A stretch of DNA of 64,000 nucleotides from a virus (lineage: Duplodnaviria; Caudoviricetes), in IMG/VR virus record IMGVR_UViG_3300036762_000065, positions 177,707 to 241,706 of that record; one strand, given 5' to 3'. Position 1 is the first letter of the stretch. Every line of letters starts with the position of its first letter. The notes under the pieces were generated by a model that saw only the letters and a program-made list of their open reading frames with translations, did not search any database and was not told the origin of the DNA. A program made the position numbers and the translations under genes. This document shows positions 5,356 to 36,607 of the stretch, in pieces.

Positions 5356-6219
5356 TTAAAAAGAACTAACTGGAGTGTCTTTCCATTTTTCTGAAATGAA
5401 CTCAAACATGCCGGCAGAATCTAGTTTATTTTTACGCATATACTCTACTAAGCTAGATACGGTCTTGTCAGGCATTGCTTTACTGTTGTGTATCATATTA
5501 TTTAGTTGGATAATGAAGTCGTCTTTTCTAAAAGGACGAGAACGTCTTAGCCAATTTAACCCGTCTCTGGTCAACCTATCTACATTTAGGCTGTCGTTGT
5601 AAATAAGTTCAAGCAAGCCTTTACCTGCTTTCATGGCATGCCTGTAGAAATAACGCTCGCGCTCACTACCTTCTAAATTAACTTCTTTTAAACTAAGCGA
5701 ATTACGTTTATCGAGTAGTTGTGCCGACTTATTGTCTCTATACAAGTAAATAGGTATATCCAACTTCTTTGCTAACATAACAAATTTTCTTGTCATACTG
5801 TTAGCACGCACATTAGGCTTTTCGTCTAATAAAAGATGGATTTCTTTTATATATTGTTTAGCATTAGGGATTTCAGGCTTGTTACTAAGTAGTCTGTCTT
5901 CCATCTCGTAAGCGCCTTTCTTGTGCTTACGGAAATCTTCGCCCCAGTAATCAACAGCTACTATTTTGTACTTATGCCCCAACTTATAGCCGTCTAACAC
6001 TAACTGTACACTATTCGCAGACATCTTATTGTAGTTGCCGTGTACACTACGGGCAGTGGAGAAATAATACATGTAGCCCTTATTCAACACAGAATCCGAC
6101 TGAGTGCCTCCTACAGAACTTAATCGCAGCTTATTTGATGCGAGCATAAGATTGGCATTATACATACTTGTGTAGTGGAAAAGTAAATCTGTACCGCTAA
6201 TAGATATTTGTATTTTCAT
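5356..6219 (-). CDS. Putative ADP-ribosyltransferase-fold protein
   Basis: LFHYTS, YFSTARS and YEMEDRL in the order of ART strand-1 H, S-T-x and ExE motifs. Confidence 0.45.
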   Translation of the reverse strand: MKIQISISGTDLLFHYTSMYNANLMLASNKLRLSSVGGTQSDSVLNKGYMYYFSTARSVHGNYNKMSANSVQLVLDGYKLGHKYKIVAVDYWGEDFRKHKKGAYEMEDRLLSNKPEIPNAKQYIKEIHLLLDEKPNVRANSMTRKFVMLAKKLDIPIYLYRDNKSAQLLDKRNSLSLKEVNLEGSERERYFYRHAMKAGKGLLELIYNDSLNVDRLTRDGLNWLRRSRPFRKDDFIIQLNNMIHNSKAMPDKTVSSLVEYMRKNKLDSAGMFEFISEKWKDTPVSSF

Positions 6220-7558: not shown

Positions 7559-8029
7559 TTAGGCTGCCATCGGACTTAGTTCGAGTATGTAGCTCATCCT
7601 GTCAAACAAGTTCAAGTACCTTAAGTTCTTTCTGTCCTCCATAGGCACTTCAAAACCTACATAGTGTGTGTCCTGTACATTCCACACTGCCATATCTGTA
7701 GGCTCGTAAACTCTATTGTTTTCTACACAGAACGAGTGCTCCTCTATTTTCCAAGGCTCTCCTGTTTTAGTTCGAGATATTACGTACCCGACATACAAAA
7801 GGGCTGCTGGGTGAGTTTCGCAGTATCGAATAGCATTCTGGTGAGGCGATGAAGGATTACCTGTAGCAACATGCTTACCTAGCTTTATCTCAGGTAATTT
7901 CCGCAAACGTTGTTGCAGATCGCGCCAAAAAGGACGAGCACTAACAACACTGTCTATAATAACAGATGGTAGGTGTGAATAATTAGTGGCTTGTGCTCTG
8001 GCCATACATATATCTATTGCGAACATCAT
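7559..8029 (-). CDS. Transglutaminase/papain-fold-like protein, probably degenerate
   Basis: HQNA...YVGYV...EHSFCV...VYEPT pattern; expected catalytic Cys absent. Confidence 0.4.
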   Translation of the reverse strand: MMFAIDICMARAQATNYSHLPSVIIDSVVSARPFWRDLQQRLRKLPEIKLGKHVATGNPSSPHQNAIRYCETHPAALLYVGYVISRTKTGEPWKIEEHSFCVENNRVYEPTDMAVWNVQDTHYVGFEVPMEDRKNLRYLNLFDRMSYILELSPMAA

Positions 8030-34270: not shown

Positions 34271-34419
34271 TTTAAGTCCTTGTGATACAATCGTGTGGTT
34301 GATTATATAGGTGACGCTTGACTAAATTATTATATTAATCAGCGTAGGTAATGCAAAATAGGACTTCATGTTAACAAGTGTTTATCATAATACACCTCGC
34401 TAAACGTTTATTATTATAT

Positions 34420-34471
34420 GGCGAACGTTACTTAACACCGTAACCGGCGAACGTTACTTAACGCCGTTACC
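34420..34471 (-). repeat. Conserved leader hairpin, copy D (twin TAAGTAAC)
   Basis: GTAACGGCG-TTAAGTAACGTT-CGCCGGTTAC followed by a second TTAAGTAACGTTCGCC. Confidence 0.7.
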
Positions 34472-34532
34472 ACTTTTCATCGTGCTCTAGTTCTTTGATC
34501 GAGTATATCAAATTATAATAAAAATAGCAAAT

Positions 34533-34561
34533 ATTTTATTACGTCTTAGACGTAATAAAAT
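34533..34561 (-). terminator. Hairpin immediately 3' of the tRNA
   Basis: 13-bp perfect stem ATTTTATTACGTC/GACGTAATAAAAT. Confidence 0.6.
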
Positions 34562-34566
34562 TATTA

Positions 34567-34644
34567 TGGTGCCCCTCGGCGGACTTGAACCGACGACCTA
34601 CCGATTATGGGTCAGGTGCTCTAACAAACTGAGCTAAAGGGGGC
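34567..34644 (-). tRNA. tRNA with CAT anticodon (Ile2/Met-like), non-canonical
   Basis: GCCCCCTTTAGCTCAG...GAGC, CCCATAA loop, GGTTCAAGTCC T-arm, encoded ACCA end. Confidence 0.8.
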
Positions 34645-34658
34645 TAATTACAATAAGA

Positions 34659-34690
34659 GGAGGACACTTTATACAAACAAAGTGTCCTCC
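34659..34690 (-). terminator. Hairpin between the large structured RNA and the tRNA
   Basis: 12-bp stem GGAGGACACTTT/AAAGTGTCCTCC. Confidence 0.6.
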
Positions 34691-34694
34691 AATG

Positions 34695-35030
34695 TAGTTA
34701 CTGTATTTTTATAGAAGGTCTTGTCTACCACAAAGTTCCATCTTCTCGGCATATGGGAGCAAGAGGCGACAACGAAGAGGACTCCAATACACCAGTTTTG
34801 ACAAAAACACCTCTTCGTCGTGTTCTTAAATTAGATCCCCAACCCTGAGAGTACTCCCCAAATCGTTTTGACGTAACTTAAGTGGCTGCATCATAGCACA
34901 CTTGTAATATCAAATCATATCCGGGCACAGGGCCAGTTCCTCTTATTTAACGTAGGTTTTCTCGCTTTCGAATAAGCAACCTTACGATTTATAGTAGAGG
35001 CGACACTATAAATTCTTTTACAGGTAACTA
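34695..35030 (-). ncRNA. Candidate large structured ncRNA (~335 nt)
   Basis: Terminal stem TAGTTAC(C)TGTA/TACAGTAACTA enclosing at least five helices; no credible ORF. Confidence 0.55.
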
Positions 35031-35086
35031 AAGTCCTATTCGTTGAATCTTATATTCACACTTTTTAATCCGGTAAATCAACAAGG

Positions 35087-36607
35087 TTATTCATCATCAC
35101 CACCTTCTTCAACGTTCAACTTAGTCTTAGCGCCTTGTGCTTTAATCATAGCTTTATACAACTCAAGACCTTTACCTGAAGCCATCTGCCTGCGCACAAA
35201 AGTACGCAACAGTACCGGCTTAGGAAGTTTGTAGTCTATACACATATCTTTGATTAAATCCTTATCACCTTCGACAAGGGTTTTAAATTCTAACCAAGAC
35301 ATGGATATGCCTGCAAAAGGATTATCAAAAGAATAATGTTCTGTCTTTACTTCCCCAGTAAGTCTATCAATAAGTTCTAGTGACATACCTTCTAGGAATT
35401 TGATTTTCTTCCGGTTGCCTCCGATTTGACCTGTAGACTTCAAATACTGATAAGTGTCCCAAGTTTGACAGAACCCTGTTGCGTTACCTTCTGCGTTCTG
35501 CACAACAAGTCGCAACATTGTTTCAGAGCTAGGTCTACCGCCCAACTTGTTTTTAAATGTACGCACTTTTATGTAACGATAAACATCAACACCATCAACA
35601 CGCACAGAAGGTTCTTCTTCTACACTACCTTTCCCTTGCACACCGGCAGTAGATAACGAAACCGAACTTGTACGCAATCTAACGTCCGAGAAAAACTTTA
35701 GTGAGTTTCCACAAGGTTCATCTTCTGTAGGACCGTGCATTGCCATAGGTATAGCTCGCATCTGATTTATCCCTAGAACTACAACTCTCTTCGGACGCAT
35801 CTGACTCTTTACACGTTTGAGTCCGTCAGCAAACATACGCGCTTGACTGCCTAAAGATTTATCGCCTTCTTCTTTATCTTCTGTTTGTTTTGGCAGCATA
35901 GCAGGATAAGAATCGACTAAGATTATAGCTTGAATAGAGCCGTCTTTGGCAGGTACTCGCAACTTGTTTGCTTTCGTCAAATACTTAACATCGTAAAGAC
36001 CTTTAAGCATTTTCTTGTTCGGCACTGTGTGGTCGTAAACATAATACCAATTTTTTCCTATACGAACTTTGTCTGGTAATTCTTTTTCAAGCTTTGCTAA
36101 GTAGTTGAAAAAAGACTCTCCGTTACTTGGAGCGTAGTATCTAACTCTAGGAGGTATCAACCACTCGCCGTTATCTTCGTCTTTGACTCCGAACACATTG
36201 TCGATCTTTTGCTTGACACCCATGCTGTGCATGATGTTTTCAATATAATCTCCTTGGGTAGAACCTTCGTAGTCAAAATACGCTGCAGGTCCTAAGAATT
36301 TAGCCATAGACATTATACTGGCCAAAACTGTCATTGCTGTTGTAGACTTACAGGACTGCTCACCGCCTGCGAAAGTATACCAACCGCCTCCGAGCAGTCC
36401 TCCATTCAACATTAAATCAAGCCTAAGCAGTCCGGTACTGAATCTAGGCTCGTCTTTGTCTATAGACATTGCATTTACAGAGAACTTTTTTTCCATACTA
36501 TCGAGCGTGGAGTCCATTAAAGCGTAAGGATTGAAATCAGGTATAACTGCAGGTGTATCAGAATCGACAACACGTTTTCGCCTAGTAGTTCTTGTTGCTG
36601 TGACCAT
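35087..36607 (-). CDS. recA: RecA/UvsX-like recombinase
   Basis: STGLLRLDLMLNGGL, GGEQSCKST, YFDYEG, ILVDSY, LGSQARM, INQMR, GNSLKFFSDVRL. Confidence 0.88.
   Translation of the reverse strand: MVTATRTTRRKRVVDSDTPAVIPDFNPYALMDSTLDSMEKKFSVNAMSIDKDEPRFSTGLLRLDLMLNGGLLGGGWYTFAGGEQSCKSTTAMTVLASIMSMAKFLGPAAYFDYEGSTQGDYIENIMHSMGVKQKIDNVFGVKDEDNGEWLIPPRVRYYAPSNGESFFNYLAKLEKELPDKVRIGKNWYYVYDHTVPNKKMLKGLYDVKYLTKANKLRVPAKDGSIQAIILVDSYPAMLPKQTEDKEEGDKSLGSQARMFADGLKRVKSQMRPKRVVVLGINQMRAIPMAMHGPTEDEPCGNSLKFFSDVRLRTSSVSLSTAGVQGKGSVEEEPSVRVDGVDVYRYIKVRTFKNKLGGRPSSETMLRLVVQNAEGNATGFCQTWDTYQYLKSTGQIGGNRKKIKFLEGMSLELIDRLTGEVKTEHYSFDNPFAGISMSWLEFKTLVEGDKDLIKDMCIDYKLPKPVLLRTFVRRQMASGKGLELYKAMIKAQGAKTKLNVEEGGDDE

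Follow-up and report, generated by a model that had tools for sequence, protein, structure and literature searches.

A candidate small structured RNA gene in the largest intergenic gap of a PaBG-like jumbo phage

The DNA analysed here, the terminal 64 kb (64,000 nt; G000:C1:177707-241706) of a virus record that is 241,706 bp long and has direct terminal repeats, comes from a PaBG-like jumbo phage; it is called the window below, and positions are those of the window unless a relative is named. From the sequence alone it had been proposed that positions 34695-35030 of its minus strand, lying between recA and a tRNA gene, form one closed multibranch RNA of ~335 nt and represent a new large structured RNA class akin to GOLLD and ROOL. 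Comparison with related phages leads us to a different view. The 336-nt stretch is in all probability a composite of a ~190-nt segment (unit A), a hairpin (H) and a ~65-nt conserved segment (unit B) rather than a single closed RNA, and unit A, judged by its covariation between lineages, is very probably a functional structured RNA. The arrangement that we favour, and think likely, is a mosaic in which A is an autonomous small RNA gene, H is specific to this lineage and B is the promoter or leader of the tRNA gene. Unit A appears to be a genuine, previously undescribed structured RNA gene that is common to a few uncultured giant phages.

A blastn search of 50,697 phage records with 34400-35200 as query yielded matches to the tRNA alone. 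Since DNA similarity in phage genomes did not extend beyond the tRNA, relatives were gathered through homologues of RecA and of a 430-aa protein encoded on the far side of the intergenic gap. These were L005 and L006 (RecA 81% identical to the window's in each), L007 (76%), L031 (70%) and the strain variants L156-L161, in which the neighbouring 430-aa protein is 98% identical and among which L157 served as sister strain. The strain variants and L005 are found in the WANG18-1 and XULI22-1 assemblies. The 816-nt gap was compared with the related loci by sensitive blastn, and the sequences were then read by eye. Unit A, the 5′ ~190 nt, matches L005 6570-6746 and L007 1660-1851; unit B, the 3′ ~65 nt, matches L005 ~5826-5885 and L031 ~1965-2025. 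B lies ~700 nt upstream of A in L005, with a tRNA-like RNA and an 80-aa open reading frame (ORF) in between, in L007 A stands without B immediately after recA, in L031 B is present but the part of the contig examined contains no A upstream of it, and L006 has neither within the 5.1 kb examined. A search with a RecA C-terminal fragment for genes at contig edges returned nothing closer. Because A and B are separate or reordered in the relatives, the closed 335-nt RNA is a lineage-specific juxtaposition. The collection of homologues around recA, suggested as a check by the sequence-only reading, thus bore out a structured RNA, which covaries in three lineages, while the 335-nt unit itself fell apart.

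Taken in isolation, the stretch does have most of the pairing potential ascribed to it. Its ends are complementary (TAGTTACCTGTA/TACAGTAACTA), as are the internal segments ATTTATAGT/ACTATAAAT, CGTAAGGTT/AACCTACG, TTTGA..AAGTG/CACTT..TCAAA and ACGACGAAGAGG/CCTCTTCGTTGT, and the 10-mer TGTCGCCTCT occurs exactly twice (34996-35005 and 34762-34771), which together with two AAGAGG partners would permit alternative pairings. On the minus strand the 336 nt fold at -97.4 kcal/mol, compared with -79.6 ± 4.4 kcal/mol for dinucleotide shuffles, none of 100 of which was equally good (z = -4.05; z = -2.9 for the plus strand). The minimum-energy structure includes the terminal helix and, with no terminator-like site between A and B in the window, one transcript could hold both. 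All of this would suit a single closed multibranch RNA of the GOLLD/ROOL kind running from 35030 to 34695. Such an RNA is nevertheless at odds with the separation and reversal of its two halves in L005, with A standing alone in L007 and with B occurring without A in L031. The terminal helix that would close it links two elements that are apart in L005, and its 5′ arm has no counterpart beside A in either L005 or L007. Moreover, the 3′ third folds no better than shuffles, and no match to GOLLD, ROOL or any other large RNA family was obtained. We therefore regard the single-RNA explanation as very unlikely. Since the terminal helix is free of substitutions in the sister strain, that strain is uninformative on its pairing. 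One further pairing attributed to the stretch fails: the segments GGGAG and CTCTC are there, but a hairpin between them would need a 2-nt loop and cannot form. Their bases instead make up a palindromic bulge and one strand of a long-range helix, both of which belong to unit A.

The elements of unit A are as follows.

34826-35014, minus strand: unit A, a ~190-nt structured RNA (P1, P2 and a P3a-P3-P4 arm) with a topology shared between lineages, described by covariance model R1
34990-35010, minus strand: P1, a hairpin with a 6-bp stem and a 9-nt loop, GUCGCCUC(U/A), at 34996-35004
34951-34986, minus strand: P2, a variable hairpin of 33-36 nt in all three lineages, the sequences being unrelated
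34936-34943, minus strand: AGAGGAAC, an invariant single strand, unchanged in alignments A1, A2 and A4
34839-34936, minus strand: P3, 11 bp (34926-34936 with 34839-34849), around P4
34919-34925 with 34857-34863, minus strand: the 7-bp base of P4, which also has a variable distal part
34826-34835, minus strand: the 3′ strand of P3a, UCUAAUUUAA, pairing with 34941-34950 (9 of the 10 pairs form in the window) and containing TAATTTA
34850-34855, minus strand: a perfect 6-nt palindrome, AGUACU, within a 7-nt bulge between P4 and P3, a candidate dimerisation site

Folded separately, the window, L005 and L007 sequences share one minimum-energy topology, and the covariance model R1 was built from these three. 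Its scores were 163.5 bits for the window (34821-35022), 182.1 for L005 (6568-6746), 194.3 for L007 (1659-1851) and 158.2 for L157, with matches spanning 179-202 nt. R1 found no other match in the 241.7-kb genome, and so no paralogue there, nor in ten related loci including PaBG; PaBG and seven more distant RecA-neighbourhood loci (L001, L002, L006, L031-L034) were likewise without a match. All of the defining features, that is the GUCGCCUC loop, AGAGGAAC, an 11-bp P3 with two G-U pairs, the palindromic 7-nt bulge and P4, are present in the window, L005 and L007. No ORF of at least 30 aa lies within unit A on either strand.

Because the alignments placed gaps of L005 and L007 wrongly in P1 and P4, the strands of each helix were located explicitly and their pairs in the three lineages counted by script. 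The results were as follows.

P1, 10 positions: 3 invariant, 1 changed on one side, 3 changed on both sides with pairing kept, 3 broken
P3, 11 positions: 7 invariant, 0 changed on one side, 3 changed on both sides with pairing kept, 1 broken
Base of P4, 7 positions: 2 invariant, 0 changed on one side, 5 changed on both sides with pairing kept, 0 broken
P1, P3 and P4 together: 12 invariant, 1 changed on one side, 11 changed on both sides with pairing kept, 4 broken in one sequence

All of the breaks counted for P1 sit in its lower extension, outside the 6-bp stem; within the hairpin the loop core GUCGCCUC is invariant while three stem positions have changed on both sides. P3 keeps one U-G and one G-U pair in every lineage, and since the complementary strand would have C-A and A-C in their place, the structure is that of the RecA-sense transcript. 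Equivalents of P3a occur in the L005 and L007 folds, the minimum-energy register in L007 being shifted by two, and the support for P3a falls short of that for P1, P3 and P4. The invariant strand AGAGGAAC is complementary to CCUC of the equally invariant P1 loop, which points to a possible pseudoknot between the two.

The covariation also bears on whether an RNA is involved at all. A function at the DNA level, such as a replication origin or protein-binding sites, or the chance folding of an AT-rich spacer with no functional RNA, would accord with the position of the stretch in the largest intergenic region, set among replication and recombination genes, with the 26-bp tandem repeats 350 nt downstream and the repeats in the equivalent spacers of L005 and L007, and with the weak thermodynamic signal of A in the window. 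Neither protein-binding DNA nor chance, however, would be expected to yield 11 compensatory pair changes together with invariant loops. The conserved G-U pairs are strand-specific, and the lengths and positions of the helices are kept while the sequences of P2 and distal P4 change completely. We consider this the least probable of the explanations weighed here, and a remote one.

The bulge on the 3′ side of the arm reads G-AGUACU in the window, A-GACGUC in L005 and A-GAUAUC in L007. Positions 2-7 are thus palindromic in each lineage and in identical register, the three symmetric pairs differing by compensatory changes. Each hexamer is single-copy within ~1 kb and is therefore without a partner in cis. 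We put the chance probability of this positional pattern at 0.001-0.01, which is a rough estimate made with no formal test. The simplest reading would be intermolecular self-pairing, giving a kissing dimer, and a self-pairing palindrome would also explain the impossible GGGAG/CTCTC hairpin. We propose dimerisation of unit A tentatively, the balance of probability lying somewhat against it.

Two -10-like motifs stand beside unit A, distributed as follows.

35053-35060, minus strand: TGTGAATA, one mismatch away from the promoter-like TGTAAATA, ~40 nt upstream of A in the window
35015-35022, minus strand: TGTAAAAG, the second -10-like motif, adjoining A and overlapping the 5′ arm of the terminal helix
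Upstream motif, ~15-40 nt before A: perfect TGTAAATA in the sister strain, TGTAAATA in L007, none seen in L005
Motif directly before the conserved AGAATT: TGTAAAAG in the window and the sister strain, TGTATAAA in L005, TAATTTA in L007

Intergenic k-mers of this genome are enriched in TGTAAAT(A) (5.7-fold) and TAATTTA (7.1-fold), and both -10-like motifs, TGTAAATA and TAATTTA(A), are found mostly ~20-70 nt ahead of start codons. Phages of the PaBG group encode sigma factors of their own (PMC7412058), and the two motif classes would fit a transcription programme run by phage sigma factors. The motifs beside A may be promoters, and the breaks in lower P1 in L005 and L007 fit a transcript that starts inside it. 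We lean, by a little, towards unit A having a promoter of its own.

What follows A varies. In L007 a strong intrinsic terminator (-21.4 kcal/mol, then a U-run) starts ~25 nt after A, in L005 only 3 nt separate the end of A from the start of a T4_Y16D-family gene with a phosphoribosyltransferase gene next, and in the window A is followed by hairpin H, unit B and a 14-bp hairpin. With surroundings so varied and apparent signals of its own, A has the look of an autonomous cassette whose transcript setting changes from lineage to lineage.

These same contexts are where a role in cis has to be judged, either as a riboswitch-like leader or as a 3′-untranslated stabiliser or processing signal for neighbouring genes. 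The P3a 3′ strand of L005 lies beside the ribosome-binding region of the T4_Y16D-family gene, the terminator of L007 follows A, and A stands directly after recA in both the window and L007; in addition, the invariant AGAGG, which resembles a Shine-Dalgarno sequence, and CCUC, which resembles its complement, are reminiscent of switch elements. But the downstream partner changes from a hairpin and tRNA to a terminator and 200 nt of repeats to the Y16D and phosphoribosyltransferase genes, which would be unusual for a riboswitch, and no known riboswitch family matches. The promoter-like motifs beside A favour a 5′ end of its own, and L006, despite a RecA 81% identical to the window's, lacks A in the 5.1 kb examined, so that expression of recA is independent of A. 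A cis element as the whole explanation is unlikely in our estimation, and whether A acts in trans rather than in cis we judge to be evenly balanced.

If unit A is an autonomous small RNA gene, as we favour, it would be transcribed as a small non-coding RNA from an adjoining -10-type phage promoter motif. The transcript would present the invariant C/U-rich 9-nt P1 loop, the variable P2 and the long P3a-P3-P4 arm, and two copies might pair through the palindromic bulge. A would then be a stable RNA, either acting in trans or binding a partner, with the GUCGCCUC loop and the AGAGGAAC strand as its functional surface, either through a mutual pseudoknot or through partner binding. A bolder version, in which A self-assembles into a dimer or a higher-order RNA-only particle via the bulge while GUCGCCUC and AGAGGAAC bind or sequester a host or phage factor, strikes us as improbable.

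Several observations count against the mosaic and the function proposed for A. Unit A occurs in three independent lineages only, so its covariation reflects few events. Folded alone it gives z = -1.5 in the window and -2.0 and -3.5 in the other two lineages; this thermodynamic support is modest, and the case is accordingly one of comparison. Palindromes of 6 nt occur in unit A at about the level expected by chance, ~3 per 190 nt, which leaves the shared position and the compensatory pattern as the sole argument for dimerisation. The promoter motifs were derived from k-mer enrichment only. The downstream neighbour of A differs by lineage (hairpin and tRNA; terminator; gene start 3 nt away), and given such contexts a cis role in some lineages is possible. 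No target complementary to the P1 loop was found near the start codons of phage mRNAs. Finally, the 11-nt terminal complementarity is genuine in the window and could still form in this lineage.

The remainder of the stretch, and the DNA between it and the tRNA, is made up as follows.

34769-34821, minus strand: hairpin H, a 12-bp stem with a 29-nt loop (-20.6 kcal/mol, z = -2.3)
34762-34771, minus strand: the second TGTCGCCTCT copy, just after H
34693-34757, minus strand: unit B, with a TCTATAAAA core and including the 3′ arm of the terminal helix
34659-34690, minus strand: a 14-bp hairpin with a weak U-tail, between B and the tRNA (-22.8 kcal/mol, z = -6.5)
34567-34643, minus strand: a tRNA with anticodon CAU and encoded CCA (42.1 bits with the Rfam tRNA model)

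Hairpin H has no sequence homologue in L005, L007 or L031, and L005 and L031 carry unrelated hairpins in its place. In L005 a degenerate counterpart of TGTCGCCTCT, GTGCCCCTCCCATAG, was seen by eye in a hairpin loop upstream of B. The hairpin described earlier as following the closed RNA is indeed present, at 34659-34690, with a stem of 14 rather than 12 bp. A perfect 10-nt complementarity joins AAUAAGAGGA of unit A (34938-34947) to the tail of this pre-tRNA hairpin, UCCUCUUAUU (34652-34661); it occurs in this lineage only and is about what chance would give in 816 nt.

The core of B (~55-60 nt) is ~80% identical to its counterparts in L005 and L031 and is unique in the genome. It folds no better than shuffles (z = +0.7, -1.5 and +0.4), and on these scores we rejected B as a structured RNA. 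B accompanies a tRNA or tRNA-like gene, not unit A: in L005 and L031 a tRNA-like RNA begins 8-12 nt downstream of it, and in the window the tRNA follows after ~50 nt. From this constant position just 5′ of such a gene, B probably serves the downstream tRNA gene as promoter or leader, acting at the DNA level. A canonical sigma-70 promoter was considered and set aside, for the window has TAGACA-16-TACAGT but L005 and L031 fail the same scan. A 7-bp inverted repeat around B, with two compensatory changes, could possibly be a small RNA hairpin or an operator.

The tRNA at 34567-34643 is the phage's only credible one. In the window it has U at 34626, where the D-loop normally has G18 (AGTTTGTTAG), whereas the sister strain has the canonical AGTTGGTTAG; ARAGORN passed over the window tRNA but reported the copy of the sister strain, with its G at that position, as tRNA-Met(CAT). 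The Rfam alignment also places a C-C mismatch at 1:72 of the window tRNA. At the corresponding place, L005 (5890-6165) and L031 (2025-2205) have RNAs of 190-280 nt in which a 7-10-bp acceptor-like stem beside a canonical T-arm (GGTTCGAATCC) encloses 140-230 nt of extra structure. That of L005 opens with GCTCAGTTG, and GTTAGAGC takes it up again after ~125 nt, as in a tRNA whose D-loop carries a large insertion. These tRNA-like RNAs went unrecognised by both ARAGORN and Rfam. A 95-nt 'tRNA-Ile(gat)' called by ARAGORN just before the window (G000:C1:176958-177052) is probably a false positive because it lies inside a long ORF (175919-177434).

Known families were sought by cmscan of 34300-35300 against all 4227 models of Rfam 15 at E ≤ 10, and by a scan of the entire window at gathering score. 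At neither threshold did anything but the neighbouring tRNA match a family, as the sequence-only reading had anticipated, and scans of the relatives L005, L006, L007 and L031 at E ≤ 0.1 gave nothing beyond the tRNA. Its view that the stretch resembles neither transfer-messenger RNA (tmRNA) nor RNase P RNA was also upheld: ARAGORN, run on the window, the full genome and the relatives, reported no tmRNA, Rfam gave no tmRNA match, and no RNase P model scored at E ≤ 10. Its comparison with GOLLD (RF01998) and ROOL (RF03087) breaks down both on size and on the covariance-model search, in which neither Rfam model matched at E ≤ 10. A phi29-type packaging RNA (pRNA) was not among the matches at that threshold either. 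No group I intron (Intron_gpI) was detected in the window, L005, L006, L007 or L031, and the element is intergenic; riboswitch aptamer models gave no match in the window and four relatives, and the downstream context differs in three lineages. Two local resemblances were dropped. GAGGAAC as the CR-I element of RNase P (GAGGAAAGUCC) is superficial, the next bases forming P3 with a covarying 3′ partner, and it is unconserved in the relatives; the likeness of the P4 loop to the L11-binding site of 23S rRNA is not conserved in the relatives either.

Exact-pattern scans for further members of unit A in IMG/VR returned 23, 0 and 46 loci and no homologue: the 23 looked on inspection like chance or coding matches, and none of the 46 was matched by R1. 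The unit A pattern hit at least 119 loci in JGI metagenomes, all of them high-GC chance matches among the matches listed, and 0 in GTDB genomes; the unit B pattern found 0 in IMG/VR. The evidence supports a new small phage RNA family, unit A. Of the 'new large structured RNA class' there remains a structured RNA with no Rfam match, of ~190 rather than 335 nt and in few lineages; the phrase is overstated because only three lineages and strain variants carry it.

All long ORFs near 34695-35030 are on the minus strand. The ORF at 35087-36607 (minus strand) encodes a RecA/UvsX-type recombinase (Pfam RecA, E = 1.4e-19) that shares 53% identity with gp116, the UvsX-like recombinase of Pseudomonas phage PaBG. 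A simple ORF call puts the coding share of the genome at 94%, and none of its intergenic regions is larger than the gap at 34271-35086 (816 nt), which separates the UvsX/RecA gene from that for the 430-aa protein. Along the minus strand the gap contains the 336 nt, the 14-bp hairpin, the tRNA(CAU), a hairpin with 14-nt arms and an A/U tail, repeats and the promoter region of the 430-aa gene. The repeats are as follows.

34420-34471: two tandem 26-bp repeats ahead of the 430-aa protein gene

Upstream of the same gene, L007 has 2 × 18 bp repeats, GATCAAAAAACATACAAC, at 1968-2004, and L005 an inverted pair rich in TGATCA at 7766-7820; in each lineage these repeats look like iterons or operators. 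In PaBG the 324-nt spacer after the UvsX gene (L004:5387-5710) is itself strongly folded (-124.6 kcal/mol, z = -6.4) and has no homology to unit A detectable with R1. The RecA/UvsX homologues of several Erwinia jumbo phages match as two pieces across ~2.4 kb, and the metagenomic relative L164 (161-2995) encodes a 944-aa RecA with a faint LAGLIDADG match; these split and long forms suggest inteins or introns in the RecA/UvsX family.

Unit A belongs to a known kind of molecule, the small structured RNAs of large phages, which are often beside tRNA genes. Species 1 and 2 RNAs of phage T4 (rnaC/rnaD) are reportedly small stable RNAs encoded in the T4 tRNA gene cluster. Like A they are phage-encoded, structured and ~100-200 nt long, and lie by tRNA genes of a large myophage; A differs in having no tRNA-like end and, seemingly, a promoter of its own, whereas they are processed out of a tRNA precursor. 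GOLLD and ROOL are phage or prophage non-coding RNAs, often adjoining tRNA genes. They reportedly form homo-oligomers made of RNA alone, a parallel to the candidate dimerisation site of A. They are, however, 500-800 nt long with many conserved junctions, as against ~190 nt and three stem-loops. The pRNA of phi29 (120-174 nt) joins its copies by intermolecular base pairs, and these covary from one related phage to another as the sequence drifts, much as the self-complementary bulge of A, another phage-encoded structured RNA, covaries. Unlike A, it uses two different complementary loops and serves DNA packaging in small podophages; no link of unit A to packaging genes is evident. The dimerisation initiation site of HIV-1 is a 6-nt palindromic kissing loop that varies between lineages yet stays palindromic, but it is a hairpin loop in viral genomic RNA, whereas that of A is a 7-nt bulge in a small phage RNA for which dimerisation is a prediction. 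Finally, Grad-seq of the jumbo phage phiKZ found intergenic non-coding RNAs of ~100 nt (PMC8545117). These resemble A as intergenic small RNAs of a jumbo phage, one of a different lineage.

The case carries a caution, in that long-range helices read from one sequence can mislead. With the annotation corrected, the largest non-coding gap of this genome becomes a shuffled cassette region holding a putative RNA gene, a probable tRNA promoter or leader and a tRNA. Phage-encoded structured RNAs are few in number and mostly without known function, and the small size of unit A suits it to in vitro transcription, native gels, chemical probing by SHAPE and structural work. With it one can ask directly if small phage RNAs self-associate in the manner of the large ornate ones and, if that proved true, a self-assembling A would be a miniature counterpart, in jumbo myophages, of the oligomeric ROOL and GOLLD RNAs or of the phi29 pRNA.

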